From NCBI GenBank assembly GCA_015233145.1, contig JADFYI010000002.1:44495-108494 (forward strand): a DNA stretch of 64,000 bases, read 5' to 3'. The translations under genes and the position numbers were made by a program. How positions within the stretch are numbered: position 1 is the stretch's first letter; every line of letters starts with the position of its first letter. The notes below the pieces were generated by a model that worked only from the letters and a program-made list of their open reading frames with translations, made no database searches and had not been told where the DNA came from. The DNA is from Candidatus Omnitrophota bacterium. Lineage in GTDB: Bacteria > Omnitrophota > Gorgyraeia > Zapsychrales > Fredricksoniimonadaceae. Below, piece by piece: positions 5,461 to 34,276 of this stretch.

Positions 5461-5967
5461 CTACTTCTTTTTCTTTTTCGAAACCGGTTTTTTCTTGCTT
5501 AGCGCTTTTTTGACAAGAGAAACCTTTTTCTTTTTTTGAGCAAATGGCTTATTAATGACAACAGGAGTTTTTCCCAAGGCCTGAGGAATGTCTTTCGGCC
5601 TGTTATCAACGCTTGGCGTTGAGGTTAAACGGCCGCCAGCCTTGCGTCGGGAGAAACATTCCTGGCAATACACAGGCCGGTCGCCGGTGGGTTTAAAAGG
5701 GACCGAACAATCTTTCTTGCAATCTGCGCAAATGGCCGTGTGCATGACCCTTCCATTAAAACGATTGTTTTGCGGGGCTCCCCCTTGAACATGCGTTAGA
5801 ACGGGCGGCACAGGAAGCGGCTTTACGCCAGGCTTTACGTCAACCAAAGGACGGTTAATTAAAGTGTCCAGTTTTTTATCAAGTAACGTCAGTTGGGCTT
5901 GAAGTTGTTCCTGTATTTTAATAATTAAAACAAGCAATTCCTGTTCATTTTGCGTCTCTTTTTTCAT
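5461..5967 (-). CDS. CxxC-x17-CxxC zinc-ribbon protein with coiled-coil N-terminus and poly-Lys tail
   Basis: CADC-KKDCSVPFKPTGDRPVY-CQEC is exactly CxxC-x17-CxxC. The C-terminus is KKKKVSLVKKALSKKKPVSKKKKK. The start is trimmed from the TTG at 6009 to ATG 5967, which has AAGGAGG 4 nt upstream. Confidence 0.7.
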   Translation of the reverse strand: MKKETQNEQELLVLIIKIQEQLQAQLTLLDKKLDTLINRPLVDVKPGVKPLPVPPVLTHVQGGAPQNNRFNGRVMHTAICADCKKDCSVPFKPTGDRPVYCQECFSRRKAGGRLTSTPSVDNRPKDIPQALGKTPVVINKPFAQKKKKVSLVKKALSKKKPVSKKKKK

Positions 5968-5999
5968 ACTCCTCCTTAATTCTTTTGATTCATTCCTTT

Positions 6000-6824
6000 T
6001 TATTTCCAAATCACCCGGGCAGGATTCCTTAACGGTATCCGGCTATAACGGTACTTGGGATGCCCAATCATCATAACAGCACCAGCCGCAGCGCGCGAAG
6101 ACATACCTGTAAATTTTCTCACATCATCAGACATATTGATGGCCATATTCAAATACCCGGCCCAGCAGGCGCCAAGCCCGAGGCCAAAAGCCGCGAGTTC
6201 AAGATATGTGGCCGCAATCGTGCATGACTGCGGAACCATGGGATCGTCTTTAAGGCCGTAAGCCATCACAATGCACGGTGCCCCTCGGCAAATCCTGTCT
6301 TCGCCCTTTTTCCAGGCCTCGAGTGAAATATTAAAACGAAGCGCCTCTGCAATGGGGGATTTTGCCTCTAAAAGTTGTTCCATCCACGTTGAGACACGGC
6401 CTGCCAGGTCATGGACTTTTTCTTTCCCCATAACCACCATCCAGTTGACTGGCTGGCGGTTAATGCCCGAAGGCGCATACCTGGCGATATCCAAAAGCTT
6501 TTCTATGGATTCTTTGGCCACTGGCGCATCTTTATAGGTTCGAATAGAGCGCCGGGCCTTCAAGAGCAGTTGAACCTGTTCGGCGTTCGGCAATTGAGAA
6601 TGGTTGAACGGCACGGTATCTGACACGCTCATGGTCGAAAGTTTTATCGACCCTGGCGGGCAGAATGAAAAACAGTGGCCGCAGTTAATGCACCTTTCCC
6701 CGCCGCCTGGCAAAAATTCCGGTATGTGATCGTTTTTATTCATTTTTAAAATCTGGATCGGGCAAACTTCTACACAGCGCCCGTCGCCTTTACATGTTTT
6801 TTTGTCAACGTCAAGAGTGATCAT
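6000..6824 (-). CDS. ferredoxin-domain-fused nitroreductase family protein
   Basis: Two 4Fe-4S-type Cys motifs (CKGDGRCVEVCP, CINCGHCFSFCP) are followed by nitroreductase-fold motifs RRSIRTYKD and RYAPSGINRQP. Confidence 0.85.
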   Translation of the reverse strand: MITLDVDKKTCKGDGRCVEVCPIQILKMNKNDHIPEFLPGGGERCINCGHCFSFCPPGSIKLSTMSVSDTVPFNHSQLPNAEQVQLLLKARRSIRTYKDAPVAKESIEKLLDIARYAPSGINRQPVNWMVVMGKEKVHDLAGRVSTWMEQLLEAKSPIAEALRFNISLEAWKKGEDRICRGAPCIVMAYGLKDDPMVPQSCTIAATYLELAAFGLGLGACWAGYLNMAINMSDDVRKFTGMSSRAAAGAVMMIGHPKYRYSRIPLRNPARVIWK

Positions 6825-18307: not shown

Positions 18308-18371
18308 ACCATGCTCTCTAAAACCATTAATTGTATTTTTGGCACTTCTTTACTAAACATATTAAAGTGTT

Positions 18372-18399
18372 TTGCATTTTCGGTAAAGTCCTGTATGAT
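18372..18399 (+). promoter_or_regulatory. sigma70-like promoter for the 58-aa zinc-ribbon gene
   Basis: TTGCAT (18372..18377), a 16-nt spacer, then TATGAT (18394..18399), about 78 nt upstream of the ATG. Confidence 0.5.
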
Positions 18400-18476
18400 A
18401 AAACAAATAAACGATCTGGCAAAACGGCTGTTCAAGTGAACTCGCCCGGCCAGATCAAAATCGTAAGGATAAGAAT

Positions 18477-18653
18477 ATGGGTTTTCATCAAGGTGGTGGC
18501 AGGGGCGGATACGACAGCAGTCGTCCGAGAGAGTTTCACAAGGCAGTTTGCGCAGAATGCAAAAAGGAATGTGAAGTTCCTTTCAAGCCGAGCAATGATC
18601 GCCCGGTTTATTGCAAGGATTGCTTCTCAAAACGCAAGGATGGCGGCCGCTAA
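18477..18653 (+). CDS. 58-aa CxxC-x17-CxxC zinc-ribbon protein with Gly/Arg-rich N-terminus (not in ORF track)
   Basis: Hand translation gives MGFHQGGGRGGYDSSRPREFHKAVCAECKKECEVPFKPSNDRPVYCKDCFSKRKDGGR. AAGGA lies 7 nt upstream, and the gene has its own promoter and a perfect terminator. The motif is near-identical to that in ORF 5461..5967. The 108-aa track ORF 18331..18657 is in another frame. Confidence 0.78.
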   Translation: MGFHQGGGRGGYDSSRPREFHKAVCAECKKECEVPFKPSNDRPVYCKDCFSKRKDGGR

Positions 18654-18683
18654 TTAAGCGGCTGTGTCGTTTTTCAATAAAAA

Positions 18684-18720
18684 ATCTGGAGATGCATTGC
18701 ATCTCCAGATTTTTTATTTT
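18684..18720. terminator. bidirectional rho-independent terminator
   Basis: Perfect 13-bp palindrome atctggagatgca / tgcatctccagat (18684..18710), flanked by AAAAAA upstream and TTTTTTATTTT downstream. It sits between convergent genes. Confidence 0.8.
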
Positions 18721-19223
18721 CACGGATAAACCACAATCTTATCCCCTGTGATCTTGGCATTGGGGACAATGACTCTTTTGTTATCCTCGGCAATAATCAC
18801 GGTATTAAAAATCTGGATTTCGTGGACAATGCCAACAGCGCCGCCAGCTTCAATCTTGTCACCCACATGAAACGGCTGGAATAAAATAAGCATAACACCC
18901 GATGCGAAATTTGCCAGAGACCCCTGAAGAGCAAAGCCTACAGCCAGAGACGCGGCACCCACAACAGCAATAAACGAACTTGTTTCCACACCCAGCTTAT
19001 TTAATGCCGCAATGATCACAAACGTCATGATGCCGTAAAATCCAAGATGCCGGGCAAAGGACGCCAGTGTTTTATCAATCTTGGCCCTGACCATGGCTTC
19101 TTCAATCAATTTAACGACAACTTTGGCAATCAATCGGCCGATAATAAAAATTACAATCGCGCCAATGACGTTCATGCCATACTGGATAACATACTCATAA
19201 ACCTTATTAATCACTTCCTGCAT
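18720..19223 (-). CDS. short MscS-family mechanosensitive channel (TM1-3 plus beta domain only)
   Basis: AASLAVGFALQGSLANFASGVMLILFQPFHVGDKIEAGGAVGIVHEIQIFNTVI aligns by eye to E. coli MscS TM3/beta domain. The start is trimmed to ATG 19223, with GGAGG 5 nt upstream. The ORF ends where the MscS alpha/beta domain would begin. Confidence 0.75.
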   Translation of the reverse strand: MQEVINKVYEYVIQYGMNVIGAIVIFIIGRLIAKVVVKLIEEAMVRAKIDKTLASFARHLGFYGIMTFVIIAALNKLGVETSSFIAVVGAASLAVGFALQGSLANFASGVMLILFQPFHVGDKIEAGGAVGIVHEIQIFNTVIIAEDNKRVIVPNAKITGDKIVVYP

Positions 19224-19241
19224 CTGAGCCTCCTTATTTTT

Positions 19242-19310
19242 CAAGAATTCTTGGAAAATAACTCCTAAAGCTACCTGGGGTTCCAACAGAACCCCGGAGC
19301 TTTAGGAGTT
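19242..19310. repeat. structured intergenic element, copy 1 (EcoRI-centred palindrome plus two-tier hairpin)
   Basis: caagaattcttg gaaaataa then hairpin aactcctaaagct-acc(t)ggggtt-ccaacag-aaccccgg-agctttaggagtt. Homologous to 34180..34244. Confidence 0.85.
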
Positions 19311-19330: not shown

Positions 19331-19684
19331 TTACCTCGCATAATCATCCTCAAGGCGCACAATATCTTTCTCCGTAAGCTCATCGCCACAGGCCACTTCA
19401 ATAAACACCAAAGGTTTTTTGCCGAGATTGGATATGCGGTGAATAACGTGCACCGGGATATCAACAATAGAACCCTTGGCCACAGTCACTGTCAGTTCAT
19501 TGACCGTCACCATGCCCTGACCTGAAACAATAATCCATTTTTCAGACCTGTGGCCGTGTTTTTGAAGGCTCAATCTCTGGCCAGGATTGACTTCAACGCG
19601 TTTCACCCAAACGCCTGCCTCTTGAAAAATCTTGTGATACGTACCCCACGGCCTTGCTGTAATCCCTTCTTTTGCTTTTGTCAT
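19331..19684 (-). CDS. cupin-domain protein related to the C-terminal domain of type II mannose-6-phosphate isomerase
   Basis: RPWGTYHKI...VKRVEVNPGQRLSLQKHGHRSEKWIIVSGQG motif. The start is trimmed to ATG 19684 (AAGGA 7 nt upstream), which removes the overlap with the patatin gene. Confidence 0.75.
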   Translation of the reverse strand: MTKAKEGITARPWGTYHKIFQEAGVWVKRVEVNPGQRLSLQKHGHRSEKWIIVSGQGMVTVNELTVTVAKGSIVDIPVHVIHRISNLGKKPLVFIEVACGDELTEKDIVRLEDDYAR

Positions 19685-19697
19685 AATAAATCCTTGA

Positions 19698-21788
19698 TTA
19701 AGATTTCTTCTTGATGATGTCCTTGATTCTTTCAATATGCTTTTTGGCCGCCGCTTCCCCACGCGCGATCAAAACATCGGCATTGTAGAGCTCAAACCAG
19801 TTTAACCCTGACAAGTCCGGATGAATCACAATATCCGCCTGCCGGGCGCTTTGATCGGCAATGACGGCTTCGGAGGCTTCCAGTGTTCGCACAATAATAT
19901 CAGAAATATTAGGAAAAAACGTCTTGTTAATCCAGAACTTAAAACGCGTTTCAATAAAAATCCAGGGATCAGCCAGAAACGGAATTTCCAAAGATTTCTT
20001 AAGTTCGTTTTGGGTTTTCTGATATCCGTTAATCACGTCCTGTGCAGATTGAAGGACATTAACGGCAATAATTCTTTTTACGTCATCGCCCACAAGAACG
20101 TTCACCGGCAGCGGGTTCATGACGCCGCCGTCGATAATAAGCTGGTCTTCGGTCACAATCGGCTGAAAAACACCGGGGATGGAAATACTTTTCCTCACGG
20201 CATCCACCAAAGACCCTTCTTCAATAACCAAATCCTTGCGGTGCAAAAGGTCATAGGCCACAATTTTTAAAGGGATCCGAGTGTCCCTGAAAGTTTTTTC
20301 TCCGTATTTGCTGCGCAGCCACGCCATAATGGCCTTGCCGCTGATAAGCCCGGATAACGGAAAAACAAGGTCGATCAATTTAACCAGGTTGGATTTCTTT
20401 TTAAACTCCAGCGCCATTTTCTCAAGATCCGAAGATTTATAGCCAGCAGCCCAAAGCCCGCCGATTAAAGCGCCCATGGAACTGCCAACAATCACGTCGA
20501 TAGGAATCCCCTCTTCTTCAAGGACTTTAATAACCCCAATATGCGAAAGGCCAAATGCAGCGCCTCCTCCCAAGACCAAGCCAACAGAGACCCCGGATAT
20601 CCTTCTTGAAATCCGCGTAATCATTTTGGAATACTGGCTTAACGAACTGATCGCCCAAAAACTGATCACAGGCGTATCCATATGCATGGCCAGGTCTTTC
20701 GTTTGAATATGCGGCAGGAACGCCAGGACATCATAATCAAGAATACTTTTAACCGTTTCTTCCGACATGCTGCGGTGAGAACTGACGCCGCCGATAACAA
20801 CACTCACCTTCTCCTCATTAAACGTTTCCCGAAGGTTTTCTTCCAGCCGGTCCAAAACCGCGCGCCCGACATCAAGCACCTCGCGTTTTCTGGCCATGAC
20901 AAGGTAAATTAAATCAGACTGGGACAGGGTTTTCATCACAATATCGTCCATGTCGCTGGGGAGATCCACGATAATGTAACGATACTGGTCAATAAAACTC
21001 GCGACAAACTGGCTGATATGGCCGACAAGCTGTTTGTCCTGAGAGTCAAAAACCACATTCAAAAGGTCTATGCCAAGGTCTGTCTTTAAAATGATTTCAG
21101 GAATGGCTTCCGTATCATGAACAATTTCCGCGAGATTGCGCGGCTCTGTTTTCCATTTAGGACGGACCTCGTCAAGATCGGAAAATATCTGATGCTGGGG
21201 CGGTTTATCAGAACGGATACTCACCCACACAACCCTGTCTTTTGTTTCATTGTAAAGACTGAGGGCTAAATTCAAAGCATACGTCGACCCGCCAGACCCG
21301 GCCACAGGGCTATAAATGGAAATGATCGAACTTTTCCTGACAAGGTCGGTCTTGGTGACCTTGCTTCGAATGCGCTGGGAAAGAATCTTGCTGAATTTAA
21401 TGCCAAGGTCAGGATTTTTCTTAAGAATGACTTTAAACTGCGGGACAGGAATCCTTAAAATCACAGAGTCATTGATGGCTTCAAAAGTTTCAGAATGCGC
21501 CTCACCTGTTAAGGCTGAAATAATCCCGAAAAACATTCCACGATGAATAAATTCAACGCCGTCTTTTCTTCCGTCGGAGTCAAGGCTGTAGGACTCAAGC
21601 CTTCCTGAGGCAAGGAAATAAACAAAATCCGGCTGGTTGCCGCGCCGGGAAACAAGGTCGCCTTTTTTATAATGCACCAGTTCGCTTTTTCTGGCAATCG
21701 ACTGGATGTGAAACCAATGCAGGGAAGAAAAAACAGGGATCCTTTTGACAATAGAGCAGCGTTGAAGAAAAGAAGCCATCTCAATCAT
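19698..21788 (-). CDS. cyclic-nucleotide-binding domain / degenerate ParA-MinD-like domain / patatin-like phospholipase fusion
   Basis: The N-terminal CAP_ED-like region runs from YKKGDLVSRRGNQPDFVYFLASGRL to FFG. The middle region has SIYSPVAGSGGSTYALNLALSL (a degenerate K-G-G-x-G-K-T) and YIIVDLP. The patatin region has GLVLGGGAAFG (oxyanion), GSSMG (G-x-S-x-G) and IDGG (catalytic Asp). Confidence 0.85.
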   Translation of the reverse strand: MIEMASFLQRCSIVKRIPVFSSLHWFHIQSIARKSELVHYKKGDLVSRRGNQPDFVYFLASGRLESYSLDSDGRKDGVEFIHRGMFFGIISALTGEAHSETFEAINDSVILRIPVPQFKVILKKNPDLGIKFSKILSQRIRSKVTKTDLVRKSSIISIYSPVAGSGGSTYALNLALSLYNETKDRVVWVSIRSDKPPQHQIFSDLDEVRPKWKTEPRNLAEIVHDTEAIPEIILKTDLGIDLLNVVFDSQDKQLVGHISQFVASFIDQYRYIIVDLPSDMDDIVMKTLSQSDLIYLVMARKREVLDVGRAVLDRLEENLRETFNEEKVSVVIGGVSSHRSMSEETVKSILDYDVLAFLPHIQTKDLAMHMDTPVISFWAISSLSQYSKMITRISRRISGVSVGLVLGGGAAFGLSHIGVIKVLEEEGIPIDVIVGSSMGALIGGLWAAGYKSSDLEKMALEFKKKSNLVKLIDLVFPLSGLISGKAIMAWLRSKYGEKTFRDTRIPLKIVAYDLLHRKDLVIEEGSLVDAVRKSISIPGVFQPIVTEDQLIIDGGVMNPLPVNVLVGDDVKRIIAVNVLQSAQDVINGYQKTQNELKKSLEIPFLADPWIFIETRFKFWINKTFFPNISDIIVRTLEASEAVIADQSARQADIVIHPDLSGLNWFELYNADVLIARGEAAAKKHIERIKDIIKKKS

Positions 21789-21793
21789 AAGCG

Positions 21794-22654
21794 CTAATCC
21801 TTGCGGGGAAGCAATACCTTGTTAACAAGCCAGGCATACATTTTAAAAGGGACATTACGCACAAATTTATACCGCAAATACGAGCGAAACCCGATAATAT
21901 TACGAAAAGGCATATTTCTTGCCTCTACCAATCGCTCTAAAACTTTGGCCACTTCCTCGGGGTCTCTCTTATTTTTTCTGACATGATCATCGAGAAGTTT
22001 CCTCAAATGCCGGCTGATCCGGTAATAAGGGCTTTGAGGATCATGAAAATATTTTGCATACCTGGCATTGTCTTCGAAAATTTTTGTCCGGTAAGAACCT
22101 GGTTCCACAACCGCCACATCAATCCCCAAAGGCTTCAGTTCCATATAAAGGCACTCTGAAAAGCCTTCCAGCGCCCATTTGCTGGAAGCATACGCGCTGA
22201 AAGCCGGTGTCCCGGAAAAAGAGGCCAGGCTTGTAACGTTAATCACCTTGCCTGTCTTTTGCCCGCGCATCAAGGGCAAAACAGCCCTGGTCACAGCCAA
22301 AACGCCAAAAAAATTAACATCAAATTGCGCGCGATAATCATCGTCGGAAAGGTCTTCAAAGAATCCGCCGATGCCAAACCCGGCATTGTTAATCAGGACA
22401 TCAATCTTTTTTTCTTGGGCTGAAATGTGCTGAACCGCGGCAAGGATAGTTTCAGGTTTTGTCACATCCAAAGGGATAATTTTTAGGTTATTGTCCCCGC
22501 CGCGCTTCTTGACTTCAGTTAAAAGGGGTTTTGACTTGGAGACATCCCGCATGGTGGCATAAACCTGATGGCCTTTGGCGGCCAGACGCGCCGCAGTCAG
22601 CATACCAAAACCGCTCGAACAGCCGGTAATGAGGATGGTTTTCTTTAAAGACAT
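21794..22654 (-). CDS. short-chain dehydrogenase/reductase
   Basis: TGCSSGFG cofactor motif, NNAG, and catalytic S...YASSK. Confidence 0.85.
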   Translation of the reverse strand: MSLKKTILITGCSSGFGMLTAARLAAKGHQVYATMRDVSKSKPLLTEVKKRGGDNNLKIIPLDVTKPETILAAVQHISAQEKKIDVLINNAGFGIGGFFEDLSDDDYRAQFDVNFFGVLAVTRAVLPLMRGQKTGKVINVTSLASFSGTPAFSAYASSKWALEGFSECLYMELKPLGIDVAVVEPGSYRTKIFEDNARYAKYFHDPQSPYYRISRHLRKLLDDHVRKNKRDPEEVAKVLERLVEARNMPFRNIIGFRSYLRYKFVRNVPFKMYAWLVNKVLLPRKD

Positions 22655-23718
22655 TATTTAAGGGTCTTCTGTATCAGTAATGCGTCGGCCAGGACCAATG
22701 CAGTCATGGCTTCAACAACAGGGACAATGCGCGGGGTCAGGCACGGGTCGTGGCGGCCCTTGATTTCAATCTGGGACAGTGTCCCTTCGGCATTGGCGGC
22801 CATTTGCTTTTTACTGATGGATGACGTGGGCTTGACAGCCAGGCGAAAAACTATGGGTTCGCCTGTGGATATGCCGCCAGTAATTCCGCCGGAAAAATTA
22901 TTCTTGGTCCTCGGGGTGCCCTGGTCTAAAACAATCTCATCGTTACTTTCCGAACCCTTCATGGTCGCGGCCATAAAGCCGATCCCGAATTCAATGCCTT
23001 TAACAGCACCGATCGACAAAAGCGCATGGGAAAGGCTGGCTTCGAGTTTGTCAAAAACCGGGTCGCCAAGCCCTGCAGGGCAGTTGTCCACAACCGCCTC
23101 TATAATCCCGCCCACGGAATCCCCGGCCTCTTTGGCGGCAGTGATGAGTTTTATCATGTCTTCGGCTTTTTCAAGGTCAGGAGCACGGACAATATTTTTT
23201 TCAATAACGCTTTTATCAATGGTCTCAGCGTAAATCCCGCCAATGGCCAAAGTATAGGCTGTCACCTGGATATTCTGCGCTAAAAGAATTTTCTTGGCCA
23301 CAGCGCCGGCAGCCACACGCGCCGCTGTTTCACGGCCTGAAGAACGCCCGCCTCCCCTGTAATCGCGGATGCCATATTTCTGGGTATAAGTAAAATCTGC
23401 GTGGCCTGGTCTGAAAATGTCTTTGATTTCCGAGTAATCGGCTGAACGCTGGTCAGCGTTACGGATCAAAAGCGCAATCGGCGTGCCCGTGGTTTTTCCT
23501 TCAAAAACACCGGACAAAATTTCTACCACGTCACCTTCTTTTCGCGCGGTTGTGACTTCACTTTGCCCGGGCTTTCTGCGGTCCAGGTCTTTTTGGATAT
23601 CCTCCAAAGACAACTCCAAAAGCGGAGGGACGCCGTCAATAACACAGCCAATCGCCACACCATGGCTTTCACCGAAAGTCGTGACCTTAAAAATCTGACC
23701 GAAGCTGTTTCCCGCCAT
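22654..23718 (-). CDS. aroC: chorismate synthase
   Basis: MAGNSFGQIFKVTTFGESHG, RPGHADFTY and GRHDPC motifs over the full 354 aa. Confidence 0.95.
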   Translation of the reverse strand: MAGNSFGQIFKVTTFGESHGVAIGCVIDGVPPLLELSLEDIQKDLDRRKPGQSEVTTARKEGDVVEILSGVFEGKTTGTPIALLIRNADQRSADYSEIKDIFRPGHADFTYTQKYGIRDYRGGGRSSGRETAARVAAGAVAKKILLAQNIQVTAYTLAIGGIYAETIDKSVIEKNIVRAPDLEKAEDMIKLITAAKEAGDSVGGIIEAVVDNCPAGLGDPVFDKLEASLSHALLSIGAVKGIEFGIGFMAATMKGSESNDEIVLDQGTPRTKNNFSGGITGGISTGEPIVFRLAVKPTSSISKKQMAANAEGTLSQIEIKGRHDPCLTPRIVPVVEAMTALVLADALLIQKTLK

Positions 23719-23728
23719 AAGGATCCTT

Positions 23729-24340
23729 TTATTTTAACCAGGGTGTTTCTTTTACCAGCTTCTCCTCAAATGCTGAAATCTTATCTGTAAACTGAAGGGT
23801 CCAACCAACCTGGTCGAGCCCTTTGAGCAGACATTCCCTGTTAAAAGCATCGATTTCAAAGGGATATGTTTCCCCTCCGGCTTTCACAACCTTATTTTCA
23901 AGGTCAGCCGCCACATGAGCGCCTTTATTCTTTAAGACATATTGAAAAAGCTCTTCAACTTCTTCGACCTTTAATCGCACCAGGAGAATGCCGTTTTTAA
24001 TGCAATTATTATAGAAAATATCGGCAAAACTCGGCGCAATAATACAACGAAACCCGAAATCATATAACGCCCAGGGCGCATGTTCGCGCGAAGAGCCGCA
24101 GCCAAAATTATCCCGGGCCAGTAAAACCTGGGCCTTGTTGTAAGGCTCCTGATTAAGGATAAAATCTTTGTTTTCCTGAGTGCCCTCGTAATCGGTATAA
24201 CGCCATTCATGAAAAAGATGTTTCCCAAACCCTGTGCGTTCAATTTTTCTTAAGAACTGCTTGGGGATAATGGCATCTGTATCAACATTGGAACGATCCA
24301 AAGGCACGGCTACGGATGTTAAAACTGTAAACGGTTCCAT
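23729..24340 (-). CDS. leuD: 3-isopropylmalate dehydratase small subunit
   Basis: [26 protein letters not shown]. Immediately downstream of leuC. Confidence 0.92.
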
Positions 24341-24355
24341 AAAACACCCTTCTTA

Positions 24356-25762
24356 TTATTTCTTTACAAACTCTCTGATGTCTGTAATCTTGCCGGTAAT
24401 AGCAGCCAAAGCCGCCATCTCGGGGCTCACCAGGTGCGTACGGCCGCCAGGCCCCTGACGGCCTTCAAAATTCCGGTTTGATGTGGCAGCGCAGCGCTGT
24501 CCCGGCTTTAACTGATCATCGTTCATGGCCAGGCACATGGAACATCCGGCATGGCGCCATTCAAATCCTGCTGCTGTAAAAACTTTATCGAGGCCTTCTT
24601 TTTCAGCCTGGCGCTTGACCCTCCCGGAACCAGGAACAACAAGGGCCTCTACCCCTGAAGAAACTTTCTTCCCCTTAACAATCTGGGCTGCGGCGCGTAA
24701 ATCTTCAATGCGGCCGTTGGTGCAGGAACCAATAAAAACAACATCAATTTTGATATCCGTTATTTTCATCCCAGGCTTCAGATCCATGTAACGAAGCGCA
24801 TTTTTGGCTGCGGTCTGGGCCTGTGGATCTTTAAAGCTCTTGGGGTCTGGCACTGTTTTATCAACAGAAACCACCTGTCCAGGGCTTGTGCCCCAGGTAA
24901 CCTGCGGGCCAATATCTTCAGCCTTGATGTTAATCACTTTATCAAATTTGGCACCCTTATCGCTCGAGAGAGTTTTCCAGTAGCTGACGGCCTTAACCCA
25001 ATGGTCTCCTTTGGGAGAATAATCGCGGCCCTGAAGATAGGTAAACGTGGTATCGTCAGGCGCTATCATCCCGGCGCGCGCGCCAGCTTCAATAGACATA
25101 TTACAAACCGTCATGCGGCCTTCCATGGACATTTCTTGAATGGTGCTTCCGCCATACTCGATAACATACCCGGTTGCGCCGGCTGTTCCTATGAGGCCAA
25201 TAACGTAAAGGATCACATCCTTGGGCGAAACGCCAATACCTAAAACCCCATCAATATTAATAAGCATTGTGGGAGATTTCTTCTGCTGTAATGTTTGCGT
25301 AGCCAAAACATGTTCGACTTCAGAGGTGCCGATGCCAAATGCTAATGCGCCGAAAGCGCCATGCGTTGCAGTATGAGAGTCGCCGCAAACAATCACCATC
25401 CCGGGCTGGGTAATGCCCAATTCCGGGCCAATGATATGGACAACACCCTGGTCGTCATCTGTAAAATCAAAGCATTTAATGCCAAACTCATCGCAATTCT
25501 TCTTTAATTGGTTGATCTGCGTTAACGATGTTCCGCTGGCCAAAGAAAGATCTTTGCTTTTGGTGGGCACGTTATGGTCCATGGTGGCAAAAACCTTTTG
25601 AGGCGCGCGAACCTTGCGGCCAGACACACGCAGGGCCTCAAACGCCTGAGGGCTTGTGACTTCATGGACCAGCTGGCGGTCAACATAGATAAGAGAGGCC
25701 GTATTCTGGCCTTCATGGACAAGATGCGCGTCCCATATTTTCTGGTACATTGTTTTTGACAT
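24356..25762 (-). CDS. leuC: 3-isopropylmalate dehydratase large subunit
   Basis: [38 protein letters not shown]. The track start at 25795 is a TTG extension, so I use ATG 25762. Confidence 0.95.
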
Positions 25763-25879
25763 AGCATACCCCAGCCATCTTTTAAACCCTTTCAATAATT
25801 CAGAAGGCCTTCTATAAAAAGCCTTAAAAATCTCCGTGTATTATAACTCTTATCTCCAAAGGGGCAAGGGACAATCAAA

Positions 25880-28567
25880 TTATACTAATTTCCTTAAGAC
25901 CGTTTGTAAGATGCCGCCGTTACGGTAATAATCAATCTCCACAGGCGTATCCAAACGGACAATGACCCTGAATTCCCTGGCTTCTCCTTCTTTGGACTGT
26001 GCCGTAACCAAAACTTCCTGGCGGGGGCTTAAATGTTCATTTAATCCCGTAATATCAAACTCTTCATCACCTTTAAGCCCTAGTGTTTGGGCATTCTCCC
26101 CTGGCTTAAACTGGAGCGGCATAATGCCCATGCCCGCAAGGTTGCTGCGATGAATGCGTTCAAAACTTTCTGCAATGACAACACGGATTCCCAATAATGC
26201 CGGGCCTTTGGCGGCCCAGTCGCGGCTTGAGCCTGTGCCGTACTCCTTGCCTGCCAGGGCAATCAAAGGCGTGCCATCGGCCTTATATTTGACCGAACCA
26301 TCAAAAATGCTCATGACTTCCCGGGTCTTAAAATACGTTGTCCACGACCCCTCTGTGCCAGGAGCCAGCAAATTACGCAAACGGATATTGGCAAAAGTCC
26401 CCCGCGCCATCACACGGTCATTGCCGCGGCGCGCGCCATAGCTGTTAAAATCCAACGGAGCAACGCCAAGCCCTACGAGATACTTCCCTGCCGGACTTTT
26501 AGCGGAAATGTTTCCAGCCGGAGAAATATGGTCGGTTGTGATGGAATCTCCCACCATAATAAGCGCCCTGGCGCCTTTGATATCTTCAATCGCTTTCTGG
26601 CCCTGGGCTGTTTTCTCAAAATACGGAGGTTCCTGAATATAAGTGCTTTTTTTATTCCAGGGGTAAAGCTCACTCTTTAAAGACTTAACCTTGCCCCAAT
26701 TTTTGTTTCCCTTGACCGCGGTCTTATACTTTCCGCTAAAAACACGGGCTGTTACATATTTTCTGATGAGCTGGTTAATTTCTGCCTGAGACGGCCAGAT
26801 GTCTTTTAAATACACATCATTGCCGTCATTATCTTTCCCCAGGGATTCATTAAATAAATCAACTTTTACTGTTCCGGCAATGGCATAGGCCACAACCAGC
26901 ATCGGGGATGCCAGATAATTGGCCTTCACATGCGGGTTAATGCGGCCTTCAAAATTACGGTTACCGGAGGTGACACTCGCGGCAATAAGATTCCCTTCCT
27001 CAATGGCCGCAGACACGGCTTCGGGCAACGAACCGCTGTTGCCAATACATGTGGCACACCCGTAACCCACGTTATAAAACCCCAAGGCTTCAAGCGCGCG
27101 CATCAGCCCCGCTTTTTCCAAATACTCATCCACCACCTGAGAACCAGGTGTGAGCGATGTTTTGACAAAACTTTTGACCCGTAACCCTTTTTGAACAGCT
27201 CTTTGAGCCAAAAGCCCGGCACCTATGAGCACTGAGGGGTTTGAAGTATTGGTACAGCTTGTAATCGCCGCAAGCACCACACTGCCATGCCCGATATGAT
27301 TTTTCGAGCCTTTCACAGAGATTTTTTTGTCAACATCCGCTTCAGACAGGCCAAAACCTTTATGCCCGACGGGTGATGTCAATGCCGCTTTAAAACTGTT
27401 TTTAAGATCAACCATTTTCACCCGGTCCTGCGGCCGTTTAGGGCCGGCCAGGCTTGGCTCAATGGTGGTTAAATCCAATACGAGCGTGTCTGTGAATTCC
27501 GGCTCTGTTTGGGCATAGGGATCAAAAAGGCCAAGGGCTTTAAAATAGGCTTCCACTATTTTGGCTTCTTTGACGCGAGCGGTTGTGGCGTAATAATTGA
27601 TTGTTTCCTCATCAATCGGGAAAAGCCCCATGGTTGCCCCATACTCCGGCCCCATGTTGGAAATTGTGGCGCGGTCAGCCAGCGTCAGATGCTTGAGGCC
27701 AGGGCCAAAAAATTCTACAAATTTGTCCACCACGCCGCGTTTGCGGAGCATTTCCACAACAGTCAAAACAAGATCCGTGGCCGTGACGCCTTCATTGAGG
27801 GCGCCGGTTAATTTTACGCCGATTACCTCCGGCATGACCATGGACAAAGGCTCACCAAGCATCACAGATTCCGCCTCAATCCCTCCCACACCCCAACCCA
27901 CGATGCCAAGGCCGTTGATCATGGTGGTATGGCTGTCAGTGCCCACAAGGCTGTCAGGATAAAGAATAACCTCCCGGCCGTCTTTCTTTTTGAGGACACC
28001 CCCGGCTAAATATTCAAGATTGACCTGATGGATAATCCCTGTGGCCGGCGGAATAACACAAAAATTCTTAAACGTGTTTTGTCCCCATTTTAGAAATTCA
28101 TAGCGTTCATTATTGCGCTTGAATTCCAAAAACACGTTTTTATCAAAAGCCTGCCTGCAGCCAAAGGCATCCACCTGAAGCGAATGGTCAATCACCAGGT
28201 CGCACTTAACCTGGGGGTTAATTTTTTTAACATCCCCTTTCAGGCGTTTCATGGCTTCACGCATAGCGGCCAGGTCTACAACACACGGCACCCCTGTAAA
28301 ATCCTGCAAAATGACACGGCCAGGCTTAAATGCGATTTCTTTGAGTTCATTTCTGGGTTTCCAGCCTGCCAAAGTTTTAATGTCGTCTAAGGTGACCTGA
28401 TAATTGTCGTAATTGCGAAGCGCGCTTTCCAGAAGAATACGGATCGAAAACGGGAGCTTTGAGATGTCGGTTAAAAGAAGGCCAGACAACTTATTGATAT
28501 CGTAAATCTTGTACGTCTTCCCTGCGATTTTTAACGACTTGGTAAATTTTTCTTTATTAAATTCCAT
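25880..28567 (-). CDS. acnA: aconitate hydratase A
   Basis: 895 aa. Aconitase family motifs [34 protein letters not shown] and the swivel domain [16 protein letters not shown]. Confidence 0.93.
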
Positions 28568-28601: not shown

Positions 28602-28680
28602 GAGACATCGGGACATGTCAGTCGCTCGGACAGTCCCTGCCTGCCGGCAGGCTCACTTGGTGACATATTCCCGATGGCTC
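28602..28680. repeat. palindromic terminal-inverted-repeat element, short copy
   Basis: gagacatcgggacatgtca...tgacatattcccgatggctc with central palindrome gcctgccggcaggc. It shares a 17-nt core (agtcgctcggacagtcc) and an 11-nt block (cttggtgacat) with the reverse complement of 54988..55124. Confidence 0.85.
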
Positions 28681-28887
28681 ACAACAGGCTTCAAGCTGCC
28701 AATAACCAAATTGCATGAATTATAGGGAAACACCTGCCTTGCGTCAATAAAGTTGAAAGTATTTGTTGAAAAACATCTATTCCCTGTTTAGGATGACATA
28801 AAGTATAAATTGATTTAGGGAATGTGCATTGTCCTTTTCAGACGTTAAAAGGTTTTGGCAAAAGTTCCCTGAAATAAAAATTTTATT

Positions 28888-30330
28888 ATGAAAATTGCCA
28901 TATTAAATCCTTCATTCGGTGAAAACTTTGTACGCGTAGCGCGTTGGGCTGCCAAATCCCGCGGACGCGTGCAGCGCCATCCCGATTATCTTCTCACGGC
29001 CGCCCAAATTCTTATCAACGCCGGCCATGATGTTATTTTTGTCGAGGCTGCGGCAAGGAACCTGACACCCGAAGAAAGCTTTCGGATTGTGAAAAATTTT
29101 AGGGCTGAACTTCTGGTGATCCACGCCACAACCCCGTCTATTTATGCGGATATTGACCAGGCCCGTGTTATTAAAGACCAAAACCATTGCAAAGTGGCTT
29201 TTGTCGGCCAGCACACCACAGCTGAGCCGGACAACACTTTTGAAATCGCGCAAGGTGTCGTGGATTATATTTTACGCGGCGAGTATGACGACACTTTAAA
29301 AGATATTGCTTCCGGTATGCCTCCCAAAGACATTGCAGGCCTTTGCTGGCATGACGGAACAAAGGTTATTCATAATCCCAACCGTCCTGCGGTCAATGTT
29401 AATGACCTGCCCTTTCCTGCCTGGCAGCTTATTCAGCCTGAATGGTATCCGGACGCCGGGAAAAAATATCCGTTTCTCACGTTATTCACCGGACGAGGAT
29501 GTAACAATGCCTGCACGTTTTGCAGAGACCCGCAGCTCATGTATGGTTACAACTTGCGAACCCGCGACTCAAAACTTGTTGTGGATGAAATGGAATATGA
29601 CCTTAAGCTTTTCCCGCAAATCCGCGAAATCATGTTTGAGACCGACACTTTTACGGCAGACCCCCAGCATGTGCGTGCGGTCTGCCATGAAATCATAAAA
29701 CGCGGGCTTCATAAGAAAATATCATGGTCGTGCAATGTCAGGATCAATATTGACCTGGAACTTCTTCCTTTAATGAAAGAAGCCCACTGCCGCATGCTCA
29801 TGGTGGGTTACGAATTCGGCACCAACGAAGCCTTGCGCGCGGTGCGTAAAGGTGGGGTCAATGTTGAAATGGGACAACGATTCTCCCAGCGAGCGCATGA
29901 ATTAGGTTTTACTTTGCACGGATGTTTTATGATTGGCGCGCCCGGCGAAACCCGCGCCAGCGCCCGTGCGACCATTGATTATGCTAAGGGCATGCCCTTA
30001 GATACGATTCAATTCACAGGAATTGCCACTTACCCAGGAACCCATCTTTATAAATGGGCCAAAGAAAATGGATACCTTCTGGCCAAAGACTGGAAAGATT
30101 GGCTTACAGCGGAAGGCGAACAAAAAACCCTGCTCTCTTACCCGCAGCTTTCCAATAAAGAAATTGATGAACTGATTGATGTGGGATTAAAAGAATTTTA
30201 TCTGCGCCCGAAACAAATGTGGAGAATGCTGATTTCTATCCGTTCCATCGGCGATTTCCTAAGGAAACTTTACGGATTAGGCGCTTTTCTGGATTACTTC
30301 TGGAAAAAAATCTTCAGGAAAAAAGCTTAA
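28888..30330 (+). CDS. B12-binding-domain radical SAM protein (class B type)
   Basis: N-terminal Rossmann-like B12-binding region, then FTGRGCNNACTFCRDP (C-x3-C-x2-C). 480 aa, similar in layout to HpnJ-like class B enzymes. Substrate unknown. Confidence 0.85.
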   Translation: MKIAILNPSFGENFVRVARWAAKSRGRVQRHPDYLLTAAQILINAGHDVIFVEAAARNLTPEESFRIVKNFRAELLVIHATTPSIYADIDQARVIKDQNHCKVAFVGQHTTAEPDNTFEIAQGVVDYILRGEYDDTLKDIASGMPPKDIAGLCWHDGTKVIHNPNRPAVNVNDLPFPAWQLIQPEWYPDAGKKYPFLTLFTGRGCNNACTFCRDPQLMYGYNLRTRDSKLVVDEMEYDLKLFPQIREIMFETDTFTADPQHVRAVCHEIIKRGLHKKISWSCNVRINIDLELLPLMKEAHCRMLMVGYEFGTNEALRAVRKGGVNVEMGQRFSQRAHELGFTLHGCFMIGAPGETRASARATIDYAKGMPLDTIQFTGIATYPGTHLYKWAKENGYLLAKDWKDWLTAEGEQKTLLSYPQLSNKEIDELIDVGLKEFYLRPKQMWRMLISIRSIGDFLRKLYGLGAFLDYFWKKIFRKKA

Positions 30331-30752
30331 GCCCCGTCGCTCACACACGCGTACCATAAAACAAAAAATAACGGATGTGCCGGCATGGTGCTGATGCCGT
30401 TGTCCATAAAGGCCCCCGTTACCTGGCGCTTGGTTTTTTCAGGGCAAACCAAATCCCCTTTCGTGCCGTCCGGGCAGGAAGCTTTTCCCCAGAAAGAACA
30501 ATAAAAAGGCACGGCAATGGCCTCGTAAAGCATTGTTCCTGGAACCACTTTGGCAGGGTCAATTTCCGCGCGGATTTCTCCTCCACCCACAATAACGCCG
30601 TTCGAATGAATTGTTTTAACAGATAATGAATCGTAAGATCCCGAGGGCGAAGGATAATAGCTGGTTAAAACATACTGGCGGGTTTGGGCAAAAACAAAAG
30701 ATGATGAAAGAAATAATGAAATAAGGCAAATAATAAGCGTCATGGACTTCAT
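30327..30752 (-). CDS. hypothetical secreted Cys-containing protein
   Basis: The start is trimmed from the TTG at 30827 to ATG 30752 (GGGAGA 7 nt upstream). Signal peptide MKSMTLIICLISLFLSSSFVFAQ. The mature part has YYPSPSGSY and 5 Cys. No family recognised. Confidence 0.5.
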   Translation of the reverse strand: MKSMTLIICLISLFLSSSFVFAQTRQYVLTSYYPSPSGSYDSLSVKTIHSNGVIVGGGEIRAEIDPAKVVPGTMLYEAIAVPFYCSFWGKASCPDGTKGDLVCPEKTKRQVTGAFMDNGISTMPAHPLFFVLWYACVSDGA

Positions 30753-30825
30753 GGCAAAATCTCCCGTAATAAAATTTCTGATTAAAGTATACCCTTGAGC
30801 CATGCAGGCTTCAAACAATTCTTCC

Positions 30826-30866
30826 AAAAGAAAAGGGGCACATCAAACGTGCCCCTTTTCTTTTTC
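30826..30866 (-). terminator. rho-independent terminator after the sigma/anti-sigma operon
   Basis: Perfect stem aaaaggggcac (30831..30841) / gtgcccctttt (30849..30859) with a 7-nt loop. T-rich on both sides. Confidence 0.7.
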
Positions 30867-30896
30867 TATGACAAAAACCCGGTACGCGTGTGAGGC

Positions 30897-33035
30897 TTAT
30901 TTAAACTGCATGCCTCCCGAGTTTGAAACATCCAAGGCCTGGGCTGTTTCCACAAGCCTGATAAATTCTTCGCGGTACCCGAATTTATCATCGCCTTTAG
31001 CCGCCTTACCCATCTGAAGAACCTGGTCATAAGTGGACGTGCCTTTAAACTCTGAATGCCGTAACAGCATCCCCATCTCTGCCACAGACGCGGCAAAGGC
31101 AAAATCACCCTGGGGTGCATCCTTGATTTCAGTCTTGTTTAAAACCTTGGTGATGAGCTTGCTGGTGTCTTCCTTGGGCTCCTTATAACGGAGCTTCAAG
31201 GTCAGCATTTCATCGCTTTTGACGGTCTCGGCTTTCTGATACTTCAAGGCATCAACGTCAGCTGTCTTTTCTGCTGATCCCGCAGGAATGATTTCATAAA
31301 GGGCTGTGACCGTATGGCCCGCGCCTATTTCGCCGGCATCTTTCTTGTCGTCGTTGAAATCTTCCTTGTTGAGCTTGCGGTTTTCATAACCGATCAGGCG
31401 GTAGGCCTTGACAGCCGAGGGATTGAATTCCACCTGGATTTTGACATCCTTGGCAATGGTAAAAAGTGTGGAGCCCAGTTCGGTCATAAACACTTTTTTG
31501 GCTTCCTGAAGGCTGTCAAAATAATAATAAGAGCCGTTGCCTTTGTCTGCAATCTGCTCAAGACGGCCATCTTTTAAATTGCCGTCGCTCCCCACGCCGA
31601 TAACCGTGAGGAATATGCCTTCATTGCGTTTTTCCTCAATCAGGCGTGTCATTTCCGAAGTGCTGGAGACTCCCACATTAAAATCACCGTCTGTGGCTAA
31701 AATAACGCGGTTGTTGCCATTGGGAATAAAATTCTCTTTGGCAATCGCATAAGCCTTCTTGATCCCAGCCCCGCCCGCGGTTGAGCCGCCAGCCATGAGG
31801 CTCTGGATCGCAGAAATAATGACTTCCTTCTCAGTCCCGGGCGTGGATTCCAACGCCACCCGCTCTGCCCCGGCGTAAACAACGATCGCCACTTTATCCT
31901 GGTCTCTTAACTGGCGCACCATCATGGTAAAGGCCTGTTGAATCAGCGGCAATTTATCCGGCGACTGCATGGAGCCGGAAACATCCAGAAGAAATGTCAG
32001 ATTGCTGGGAGGAAGTTTGCTCACATCCGGAGTTTTTCCCTTAAGCCCGATTAAAATCAAGCGATGGTCGGCATTCCAGGGGCAAACCGCAGCCTTGGTG
32101 GTCACGCTAAAAGGCTCATCGCCTTCAGGCTTGGGATAATCATAGGAAAAATAATTAATCATTTCCTCAATCCGTATCGCATCCTTGGGCGGAAGCTGAT
32201 TGGATGTTAAATACCGGCGAAGATTGGTATAGGAGCCTGTATCCACATCAATCGAAAATGTGGAAAGCGGGTTCTGGGCAGATTCCAAGAACCGCGACTC
32301 TTCTATAGAAGCGTACTCTTCAGTATTAGCCTCTCCGACTTGCACTAGAGGAACAGAAGGAGAATTTATTGCTACTGCATTAGTATAGTAAGGTTCATAC
32401 TGCAGTGTATTTCCTAAACTTTTCGTACCATCTCTAAGAGACACCGCTGCGTTCGGCATCCTTGACGTATATTGCTCACCTATATCATCCGTTGCGCTCT
32501 TCATCCTTGATCCGGAAAAAGCATCAAAAACTCTGGCTGCCTCAGCCATAACAGACCCGTTATTAACATAAATCTTCTTAGCTTTTTCTGCATCAAGAGC
32601 AACAGACCGTTGCTCAACTTTAGCCGGTGATAAAGCCCCTGTCATGACAGGTGACACTGGCACATTCACCATGACAGTGGGATGTAAAGGATTCCCTCGT
32701 GTGAGGGAATGCCCTGCAAAGAAATAATTGTTGGCTGCTAAAACCACAATCAATACGGACGCGGCCACAGTGGCATACTGCATGGTTCTTTTGGTCTGGG
32801 GTTTCATACTCTTTTCCTCCCGTTGGATAGTTGCCAGGATCTTATGATCCAGGTCGGGAGAGGGTTGTTCGGTAACATTAATCCGCATATGTGAGGATAG
32901 GCGGCGAAGCTCGGCCAGATATTCCCTGGCCTCTGCATTCTCTTTCAAAAGAAGCTCAACTGAGGCAATGTCTTTGGGGGCAAGCTCATTGTCAGCGTAA
33001 GCGCTCACTAGTATTTTCCATTGATGGTCGCTCAT
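30897..33035 (-). CDS. anti-sigma factor fused to a periplasmic von Willebrand factor A domain protein (YfbK-like)
   Basis: The N-terminus YADNELAPKDIASVELLLKENAEAREYLAELRRL is anti-sigma-like, and the start overlaps the sigma gene by 4 nt. One TM helix. VWA MIDAS motif LLDVSGSM, and a C-terminal region resembling YfbK/DUF3520. Confidence 0.8.
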   Translation of the reverse strand: MSDHQWKILVSAYADNELAPKDIASVELLLKENAEAREYLAELRRLSSHMRINVTEQPSPDLDHKILATIQREEKSMKPQTKRTMQYATVAASVLIVVLAANNYFFAGHSLTRGNPLHPTVMVNVPVSPVMTGALSPAKVEQRSVALDAEKAKKIYVNNGSVMAEAARVFDAFSGSRMKSATDDIGEQYTSRMPNAAVSLRDGTKSLGNTLQYEPYYTNAVAINSPSVPLVQVGEANTEEYASIEESRFLESAQNPLSTFSIDVDTGSYTNLRRYLTSNQLPPKDAIRIEEMINYFSYDYPKPEGDEPFSVTTKAAVCPWNADHRLILIGLKGKTPDVSKLPPSNLTFLLDVSGSMQSPDKLPLIQQAFTMMVRQLRDQDKVAIVVYAGAERVALESTPGTEKEVIISAIQSLMAGGSTAGGAGIKKAYAIAKENFIPNGNNRVILATDGDFNVGVSSTSEMTRLIEEKRNEGIFLTVIGVGSDGNLKDGRLEQIADKGNGSYYYFDSLQEAKKVFMTELGSTLFTIAKDVKIQVEFNPSAVKAYRLIGYENRKLNKEDFNDDKKDAGEIGAGHTVTALYEIIPAGSAEKTADVDALKYQKAETVKSDEMLTLKLRYKEPKEDTSKLITKVLNKTEIKDAPQGDFAFAASVAEMGMLLRHSEFKGTSTYDQVLQMGKAAKGDDKFGYREEFIRLVETAQALDVSNSGGMQFK

Positions 33036-33607
33036 ATCTGGCCTCCTTTAATAAACTGGGCCAATTCAACGCGCAGGGTTTCCCTGGCGCGGAATATCAA
33101 AATTTTTGTTTTTTCTAAAGAACACCCTAAAATTTCGCTGATCTCGGCATAGTTTTTTTCGTGATACTCCCTAAGGATAATGGCTTCTCTTTGCTCTTCG
33201 GGTAAAGCGCTGATCGCTTTTTGAACTAACGCGGCTTCTTCTTTCTTTTTCATAAGCTCTGGCGTTAACTCGGCAGTATCTGCAGGTTCCCAGGCTTCAT
33301 ACTCATTACCATTTTGACTTTTGGACCAGAATGAAACCTGGAATTTCTGGCTTCTTAACCGTGAAATGCTCGCATTACGCGCCACAGTAAAAAGCCACGT
33401 TGAAAGCCTGGCACTGCCATCAGCCGTGTATTTCTTGGAAAAAAGCTGTAAAAAAACATCGCTTGTCACATCTTCCGCATCAGCCCTGTTTCCCAAAAAC
33501 CGCAAGGCAAAATTAAACACTTCGGTTTTTCGCCTCTGGAAAATGTCTTTAAAGGCGTCGTGGCTTCCTTCATAATACATCTGTAGCAGTTCTTCGTCTG
33601 TCCTCAT
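33032..33607 (-). CDS. ECF-type RNA polymerase sigma-70 factor
   Basis: Region 2 (RADAEDVTSDVFLQLF) and region 4 HTH (EQREAIILREYHEKNYAEISEILGCSLEKTKILIFRARETLR). Confidence 0.9.
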   Translation of the reverse strand: MRTDEELLQMYYEGSHDAFKDIFQRRKTEVFNFALRFLGNRADAEDVTSDVFLQLFSKKYTADGSARLSTWLFTVARNASISRLRSQKFQVSFWSKSQNGNEYEAWEPADTAELTPELMKKKEEAALVQKAISALPEEQREAIILREYHEKNYAEISEILGCSLEKTKILIFRARETLRVELAQFIKGGQI

Positions 33608-33847: not shown

Positions 33848-34123
33848 ATGCCACATGTTGTTTGCGAACCCTGCGTCAATTGCCGTAACACTTTTTGTTG
33901 CGTTGTATGCCCCGTGGAAGCTTTCCGCGAGGATTCCAATATGCTCGTTATCGATCCCGACGTATGTATCGATTGCGGCGCTTGCACCTCGGAATGTCCG
34001 GTACAAGCGATTTATCCTGACGGCGACGTACCTGCCAAGTGGCAGCAGTACGTAGCGCTCAACAAGGAAAAAGCGCCAAAACTCCCAATGATCAACACGA
34101 AAAAGGAACCGCTCAAGAAATAA
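33848..34123 (+). CDS. ferredoxin (Azotobacter-type 7Fe / 2x[4Fe-4S] family)
   Basis: CEPCVNCRNTFCCVVCPVEAF and CIDCGACTSECPVQAI Cys motifs. 91 aa. Confidence 0.9.
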   Translation: MPHVVCEPCVNCRNTFCCVVCPVEAFREDSNMLVIDPDVCIDCGACTSECPVQAIYPDGDVPAKWQQYVALNKEKAPKLPMINTKKEPLKK

Positions 34124-34146
34124 TAAAGCGGTAGAGATCAAGGAAA

Positions 34147-34179
34147 AAGGCGCTGCTAAAACAGCGCCTTTTATTTTTT
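34147..34179 (+). terminator. rho-independent terminator of the ferredoxin gene
   Basis: Stem aaggcgctg / cagcgcctt with a 6-nt loop, followed by TTATTTTTT. Confidence 0.8.
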
Positions 34180-34244
34180 AAGAATTCTTGAAAAATAACT
34201 CCTAAGCCCACCTGACGGCCAACAGCCGTCGGGGGCTTAGGAGT
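34180..34244. repeat. structured intergenic element, copy 2
   Basis: aagaattcttg aaaaataa then hairpin actcctaagccc-acc(t)gacggc-caaca-gccgtcgg-gggcttaggagt. Same architecture as 19242..19310, with compensatory stem substitutions. Confidence 0.85.
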
Positions 34245-34276
34245 AAGAAAAGTTTCTAACATTATGGAAGGAATCT

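Follow-up and report, generated by a model that had tools for sequence, protein, structure and literature searches.

The 64,000-nucleotide (nt) stretch of a Candidatus Omnitrophota genome analysed here (contig JADFYI010000002.1, positions 44,495 to 108,494; referred to as 'the window') carries two similar intergenic elements, copy 1 at 19234-19308 and copy 2 at 34171-34243, which are members of a small, lineage-restricted and previously undescribed family. The elements of this family are about 75-77 nt long and consist of two adjoining hairpins, referred to below as H1 and H2. A third member, in a related genome, retains both hairpins, and as far as sequence comparison can tell, the covariation among the three is strong evidence that the folding of one strand is under constraint. 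As for what the element does, we tentatively favour an occasionally gained hairpin element whose folded strand would be recognised by a protein.

Each copy is built from two abutting hairpins

Copies 1 and 2 have a common architecture. H1 (19234-19261 and 34171-34198, both on the + strand) is a 28-nt A/T-rich palindrome that forms a hairpin of 12 pairs with an AAUU apex and reads TTATTTTTCAAGAATTCTTGGAAAATAA in copy 1 and TTATTTTTTAAGAATTCTTGAAAAATAA in copy 2. H2 is a 20-bp hairpin with two single-base bulges on its 5' arm, an A and a U that flank two C:G pairs, and a pentaloop that is CAACA in both window copies. In copy 1, H2 spans 19262-19308 (+), with the sequence CTCCTAAAGCT-A-CC-T-GGGGTTC-CAACA-GAACCCC-GG-AGCTTTAGGAG (20 pairs and two 1-nt bulges); in copy 2 it spans 34199-34243 (+), with the sequence CTCCTAAGCCC-A-CC-T-GACGGC-CAACA-GCCGTC-GG-GGGCTTAGGAG. 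On the minus strand, H2 of copy 1 is followed by TTATTTTC. Each H1 contains one T:G pair (19241:19254 in copy 1, 34179:34190 in copy 2) that is a wobble on the + strand only.

A sequence-only reading of this DNA had begun copy 1 at 19242 and described an EcoRI-centred palindrome, an A-rich spacer and a two-tier hairpin. The palindrome, (C/T)AAGAATTCTTG, is indeed found at 19242-19253 and 34179-34190, followed by (G/A)AAAATAA. The supposed spacer GAAAATAA, however, is actually the right arm of H1 and pairs with TTATTTTT directly to the left of the palindrome. Left arm, palindrome and 'spacer' thus form one hairpin, the element consists of two abutting hairpins, and its start moves to 19234 (34171 in copy 2). 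The description of H2 fared better. The outer stem base ACTCCTAA/TTAGGAGT, the ACCT...GG junction and the CAACA loop are kept in both copies, although the junction is better drawn as the 1-nt bulges A and U beside the two C:G pairs. The exchanged segments are also as described: the top of the outer stem is AGCT/AGCT in copy 1 versus GCCC/GGGC in copy 2, the inner stem is GGGGTTC/GAACCCC versus GACGGC/GCCGTC, and in both segments complementarity is perfect within each copy.

The resemblance between the copies is not due to chance. The outer-stem pattern occurs at only two sites in the window, against 0.00 matches expected from 100 window shuffles, and the copies have in common a 44-nt stretch with 89% identity. 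Folded as RNA they reach -42.7 (copy 1) and -42.2 kcal/mol (copy 2), with z-scores of -8.8 and -8.6 and none of 200 shuffles as stable; they are the two most stable 70-nt folds of the window.

A third member and covariation of the helices

A structural descriptor detected a third member at positions 7351-7425 of L001, a JGI metagenome contig from a related Omnitrophota bacterium whose IlvB is 86% identical to that of the window. It reads CATTTACCCAGGAATTCTTGGGTAAATG followed by CCCTAATGTCT-A-CC-T-GAGGCCC-TTACA-GGGCCTC-GG-AGAGATAAGGG.

The family definition and the covariation rest on these three sequences. In their alignment, standard pairs fill 97.9% of the cells over 32 base pairs, and both sides have changed, in a compensatory manner, in 16 of them. 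None of 500 column shuffles matched any covariation measure, and when the partners were slid by 1-3 columns, pairing dropped to 31-58% and at most four compensatory pairs were left. RNAalifold independently predicted the identical 32 pairs, 15 of them compensatory. H1 takes part in this pattern (6 of its 12 pairs are compensatory): its outer arms change between genomes yet stay complementary, with a lower stem of UUAUUUUU/AAAAAUAA versus CAUUUACC/GGUAAAUG. Within the window genome only the H2 helices vary.

Conserved in all three members are the H1 apex CARGAATTCTTGR (the central 12-14 bp), C.CCUAA at the base of H2, ACCUG...CGG with the bulged A and U, and a YNACA pentaloop in H2, of which ACA(G) is kept throughout. 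Between these conserved parts the helical segments of H2 are swapped wholesale with pairing retained. Selection on secondary structure, first proposed from the two window copies, is thus backed by a third, independent genome that keeps both hairpins through many double substitutions. It had also been suggested that further copies carrying non-compensatory changes would speak against such selection; the changes in the L001 member are mostly compensatory, which favours it.

Genomic settings and presence in relatives

Copy 1 lies, as the sequence-only reading had placed it, between the stop codon of a cupin gene and the ribosome-binding site (RBS) and start of an MscS-like gene. The cupin gene (19331-19762, minus strand; stop codon 19331-19333) is downstream of a cyclic nucleotide (cNMP)-binding patatin gene, and the minus-strand order is patatin, cupin, a 22-nt spacer, H2', H1', GGAGG, 5 nt and the MscS-like ATG. 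This RBS and start codon (19221-19233, minus strand; GGAGG at 19233-19229, ATG at 19223) adjoin H1. The product is 167 amino acids (aa) long and 100% identical to MBF0485159.1. With H1 abutting the RBS, a separate promoter could not fit between H2 and the MscS-like gene, whose expression must then come via read-through or from inside the element. A perfect 21+1+21-nt palindrome right after the MscS-like stop (18676-18718, AATAAAAAATCTGGAGATGCA-T-TGCATCTCCAGATTTTTTATT) looks like a bidirectional terminator; with this palindrome downstream and copy 1 upstream, the MscS-like gene would be a single-gene unit.

Copy 2 is on the same strand as its neighbours, in the order ferredoxin, terminator, H1, H2, 33 nt and ilvB-ilvN. 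The ferredoxin gene (33848-34123) ends in a canonical intrinsic terminator (34145-34179, +) that is outside the family and whose T-tract is overlapped by the left arm of H1. H2 is 33 nt upstream of the first in-frame ilvB ATG (34277) and 66 nt upstream of the start (34310) implied by the shorter, 565-aa NCBI protein; the window IlvB is 100% identical to MBF0485172.1. Near copy 2, three extra minus-strand genes (30327-33607) stand between the radical-SAM and ferredoxin genes, compared with the order B12-radical-SAM, ferredoxin, ilvB in relatives. They encode an ECF-type sigma factor, a vWA/YfbK protein and a 166-aa product without a Pfam match, and represent a second local rearrangement.

The L001 member lies between tRNA-Thr and tRNA-Tyr genes, both on the opposite strand, and directly adjoins tRNA-Tyr at its 5' end; gene remnants are close by. 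This decayed zone (L001:6662-7270) contains a C-terminal peroxiredoxin (AhpC/TSA) fragment and an open reading frame (ORF; RRHTRKRFASEDKIRIVLEG) that by eye resembles an IS3-type OrfA remnant and has no Pfam match.

For comparison we used about 420 kb from roughly ten Omnitrophota genomes, covering the loci around IlvB, cupin, patatin and MscS orthologues. In the ferredoxin-ilvB spacer of five relatives (L001, L002, L119, L120 and L139) the ferredoxin terminator is kept and the element is absent, so copy 2 is a lineage-specific insertion just after the T-tract. MscS orthologues elsewhere have another gene upstream at a spacing of 10-38 nt and cupin orthologues have other genes downstream, which puts copy 1 at a synteny breakpoint. 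In the L001 genome, for example, the cupin gene is followed not by an MscS-like gene but by an ORF of at least 3,247 aa rich in beta-propeller/WD40 repeats (L122:10758-20384). None of the three sites is syntenic with another: one is a synteny breakpoint, one the tail of a terminator and one the spacer between two tRNA genes, and no homology beyond the hairpins was found among their flanks. The element as a conserved cis-regulator of ilvB or MscS was rejected, since relatives lack it at both genes. In two relatives the ferredoxin T-tract is followed by the ilvB RBS and start within about 15 nt (L120:6753-6818 and L139:9937-10001; compare window 34145-34310). This leaves no room for a promoter, and from the sequence ilvB appears to depend on read-through of the ferredoxin terminator in an attenuator-like manner.

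Strand and orientation

Copy 2 is in the sense orientation to the genes around it, and copy 1 and the L001 copy are antisense to theirs. All three copies lie forward on the C-rich strand (negative GC skew). In the window the skew is negative in intergenic DNA and, whichever strand a gene is on, at its third codon positions, which identifies it as a replication-type skew, and 54 of the 65 window ORFs are on the strand opposite to the element-forward strand. Read on the forward strand, each of the three H1 imperfections is a G:U (G:T) pair, which in the reverse reading would become A:C, and in each copy the forward strand folds better, by 1.5-6 kcal/mol, both as RNA and as DNA. With n = 3 each of these observations is no more than suggestive; jointly they favour a function linked to a particular DNA strand or to the direction of replication over one linked to transcription of the neighbours.

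Searches for further members and known families

A covariance model built from the three members (R1) recovered all of them at 86-98 bits, and regular-expression and structure descriptors run over the first about 335 kb of the related loci returned the same three. The density is two copies in the 64-kb window, one in about 42 kb of the L001 genome and none in the other sampled relatives. Among known families, Rfam 15 at the gathering threshold gave no match over the whole window; in E-value mode on both loci the best match was SprD at 28.6 bits against a threshold of 100, and the others were generic hairpins. There was no blastn match in PLSDB plasmids, and a sigma-70 promoter scan found nothing shared inside or beside the element. 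A link between the EcoRI site and restriction-modification was rejected because GAATTC is not avoided in the window (17 observed, about 18 expected). Core sites of attC, a dif-like sequence, tRNA-like folds and small ribozymes were likewise rejected on sequence or architecture, with no Rfam support.

Comparison with known systems

In how it would work, the element is most like three known groups of hairpin elements. One comprises repetitive extragenic palindromic (REP) sequences and their BIME and REPIN arrangements, which are mobilised by REP-associated tyrosine transposases (RAYTs; Y1 HUH). Like our element, these are imperfect palindromes of short length in intergenic DNA; they fold when single-stranded, occur in either orientation to genes and often just after them, form mosaics of palindromic units without terminal inverted repeats or target-site duplications, and may serve as terminators or mRNA stabilisers. 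REPs, however, occur in tens to hundreds of near-identical copies, compared with three in about 420 kb for our element, whose copies differ by wholesale compensatory stem replacement and whose H1 and H2 are mutually unrelated. REPs also have a 5' GTAG head and inverted doublets and flank RAYT genes. No GTAG head is present at either end of the element (GTAG occurs only within the reverse strand of two of the three copies, by way of the variable stem), and no PF01797 (Y1_Tnp, RAYT) was found among the scanned window ORFs.

The attC recombination sites of integrons are similar in conserving structure over sequence. The base of their stem is conserved and its top is paired but variable, and bases that bulge out of the helix on one strand may show which strand is functional; they lie between co-oriented genes near the start of the next gene, and their orientation relative to replication matters. 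The corresponding traits, a bulged A and U on the 5' arm and variable top helices, are present in all three copies. The attC core RYYYAAC...GTTRRRY is absent: the stem base is (A)CTCCTAA(A/G)...(C/T)TTAGGAG in the window and CCCTAAT...ATAAGGG in L001, with no AAC/GTT core. H1 has no counterpart in attC, and the window contains no intI, attI or cassette array, the neighbours being ordinary housekeeping genes syntenic with relatives.

Ends of IS200/IS605 elements, and the miniature palindrome-associated transposable elements (PATEs) derived from them, resemble the family in lacking terminal inverted repeats and target-site duplications, in being short with a hairpin at either end, in their single-stranded DNA logic and in a possible replication orientation bias. 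Their left- and right-end hairpins are alike, being recognised by the same TnpA, whereas H1 (A/T-rich, with a GAATTC apex) and H2 (bulged, G+C-rich) have no sequence in common, and no tnpA or tnpB is nearby. The left flanks of the element (CCTCC, GCCTT and CTACC) reveal no conserved 4-5-nt target of the IS200/IS605 type, although three sites are too few to decide. Correia/NEMIS, ERIC and BOX-type miniature inverted-repeat transposable elements (MITEs) are also small structured intergenic repeats that fold as RNA, alter transcript processing or termination and vary in presence between strains. In contrast to our element, they measure 100-150 bp or more, occur in high copy number, carry terminal inverted repeats and duplicate their target (TA or another); the two ends of our element (TTATTTTT... 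and ...TTAGGAG) are not mutual inverted repeats, and no duplication was seen. Intrinsic terminators, finally, resemble the reverse strand of copies 1 and 2 in having a G+C-rich hairpin and a U-rich tract, which in copy 1 directly follows an operon. They are not, however, sequence families common to unrelated loci, and they do not account for the conserved bulges, loop and second hairpin, for the wrong orientation of copy 2 or for the weak tail of the third member.

Since the element fails the defining tests for REP, attC, IS200/IS605 and MITEs and has no Rfam relative, we class it as a distinct small structured intergenic repeat, and among such repeats its two-hairpin mosaic with alternating conserved and covarying segments is unusual.

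Possible functions

The reading that we favour, with somewhat less than even confidence, is that the family is a low-copy, non-autonomous hairpin element, comparable to REP or attC, that is gained now and then and that a trans-acting protein recognises in its folded single-stranded form. Gain would occur by transposition or recombination. The recognised form would be a folded single strand, either DNA exposed in replication or transfer, or RNA. The protein would read the conserved apex, bulges and loop, while the helices would need only to pair, which would explain the alternation of conserved and covarying segments. Reverse transcription units crossing the element should also be affected: H2 and the following UUAUUUU(C) should act there as an intrinsic terminator or a 3'-end barrier, and at copy 1 this would probably end the patatin-cupin transcript just ahead of the MscS-like gene.

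Several observations weigh against this reading. Neither target-site duplications nor terminal inverted repeats were found at the three copies, and the Pfam-scanned ORFs of the window include no transposase, recombinase, integrase or reverse transcriptase; the five ORFs outside that scan (22654-28567) match housekeeping genes by synteny with L002. Only three members of the family are known, and R1 found no other in the about 420 kb of related DNA. A strict H2 pattern had no match in GTDB representative genomes or in JGI metagenomes, a looser H1/H2 junction pattern had 16 matches in metagenomes, all coding-sequence noise, and three IMG/VR pattern scans found chance hairpins only; the patterns used required exact matches and had been derived from two or three members, and the collections evidently lack the source metagenome-assembled genome (MAG) and the L001 contig. 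Copies 1 and 2 differ completely in their variable stems and so are not recent duplicates, meaning that mobility, if real, is rare or old. The arguments from strand and orientation rest on n = 3 (p about 0.1-0.25). Lastly, DNA palindromes can keep their arms complementary by hairpin-templated repair at the DNA level, without selection on function.

The element may instead be a host RNA punctuation signal, a possible but unlikely explanation. It would be transcribed in reverse in operon spacers, with H2 as a terminator, a 3'-exonuclease barrier or an RNase III-type site that, with or without a U-rich tail supplied by H1, separates cupin from MscS and tRNA-Thr from tRNA-Tyr. Copy 1 and the L001 copy do lie between co-oriented genes with H2 first and H1 against the start of the downstream gene, H2 is very stable and about two helical turns long, and the other terminators of this genome are A-tract/hairpin/T-tract palindromes. 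The sequence-only reading had likewise proposed that the minus-strand hairpin can act as a terminator. This holds best at copy 1, where the reverse strand, co-directional with patatin-cupin, has the hairpin followed by UUAUUUUC, and judging from its sequence this copy probably marks the 3' end of that transcript. It does not extend to the other two. Copy 2 has the reverse-strand tail, UUAUUUU(C/U) as in copy 1, but is oriented opposite to what its flanking genes would require and is beside the canonical terminator already present after ferredoxin; the L001 member has a poor tail (AUUUACCC), and a terminator inside the tRNA pair of one operon would be counter-productive. A consensus terminator scan flagged none of the three members, because the bulges break its stem rule. 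A generic hairpin role would also leave unexplained the asymmetric bulges, the conservation of the loop and H1 apex and the forward-strand G:U bias, and orthologous spacers of relatives lack the element. Rather unlikely in our view is a structured nucleic-acid site of a new class, specific to an Omnitrophota clade, in which the H1 apex GAAUUC, the A and U bulges and the YNACA loop would form the code; it could be a single-stranded DNA substrate for recombination or transposition with attC-like logic, or a protein-binding small RNA.

We consider it doubtful that the element is a structured RNA of about 77 nt made from the forward strand, whether as the product of a small RNA gene or as a leader bound by a protein, with the H1 apex, bulges and loop as recognition points. 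Alternating conserved and covarying segments are a classic signature of functional RNA, the wobbles and the better fold are on the forward strand, and copy 2 is sense and 33-66 nt upstream of ilvB. On the other hand, at two of the three loci the RNA would be antisense to both neighbours, with its upstream flank inside a coding region or tRNA gene. The three copies share no promoter or flank, have no consistent terminator 3' of H2 on the forward strand and no Rfam relative, and the element is not kept upstream of ilvB in the five relatives. A double-stranded DNA site, with protein bound at H1 (11-6-11 bp, like a tyrosine-recombinase/Xer core or a dimeric operator) and H2 as a mere adjacent terminator, is improbable. 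It would fit the near-perfect 28-bp palindrome with a centre conserved in two genomes, as well as the location of copy 1 at a synteny breakpoint and of the L001 copy among gene remnants beside tRNAs. Binding to a duplex does not need the compensatory changes seen in the outer arms, however; the GAATTC centre is symmetric, unlike directional recombinase cores, and H1 is unlike the dif consensus (compared by eye). In addition, H2 accompanies H1 in all three copies and has conserved asymmetric features of its own, and no recombinase or regulator gene is beside any copy. Equally improbable is an absence of function, with the copies as decaying relics of one ancestral palindromic insertion that are complementary by chance or through hairpin-templated repair. 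The low copy number and the lack of a known partner enzyme or consistent context agree with this, and the two arms of a palindrome can be made alike by processes acting on the DNA itself. We disfavour it because specific unpaired and apical nucleotides are conserved across genomes with 86% IlvB identity while helices are fully replaced; neutral decay would remove bulges and loops first.

Other repeats in the window

The window contains three further repeats. A second structured repeat, unrelated to the two-hairpin family, is found at 28603-28684 (+), in the divergent spacer between aconitase and B12-radical-SAM genes, and at 54988-55119 (-), about 30 nt upstream of an ExbB/ExbD pair (MotA_ExbB, ExbD). 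It has a closing stem CATCGGG(G)ACATGT.A...TGACAT.T.CCCGA.GG, a conserved inner GTCGCTCGGACAGTCC and a middle of variable length, and it looks like a leader or riboswitch-like motif; Rfam gave no match to it, either in E-value mode on copy B or at the gathering threshold over the window. A 43-nt direct repeat with 91% identity (2027-2069 and 2813-2855; TA.ACTTAGTCGATCGT.A.GGTTTATTCT.TCAAAAGAAAAA) occurs once ahead of a DUF4142 gene and once ahead of the neighbouring gene for a TMEM175-like K+ channel, both on the minus strand, and may be a shared promoter or operator. Finally, a 113-nt inverted match (5630-5742 versus 18537-18649, 74%) between a treble-clef zinc-finger gene (5461-6009, -) and an unannotated ORF (18331-18657, +) beside the MscS-like gene suggests a diverged paralogous fragment.

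Significance

Omnitrophota are uncultivated, and to our knowledge their non-coding and mobile DNA is almost wholly unexplored. Should a search of the full genome turn up just a few copies and no partner, the element would be a minor curiosity. At copy 2, an insertion has remodelled the ilvB leader of the MAG that contains the window. More broadly, with strong covariation among just three sequences, conserved nucleotides outside the helices, variable presence between genomes and an orientation that follows GC skew, the element offers a concrete starting point toward what may be a new hairpin-recognising enzyme or RNA-protein pair in Omnitrophota.

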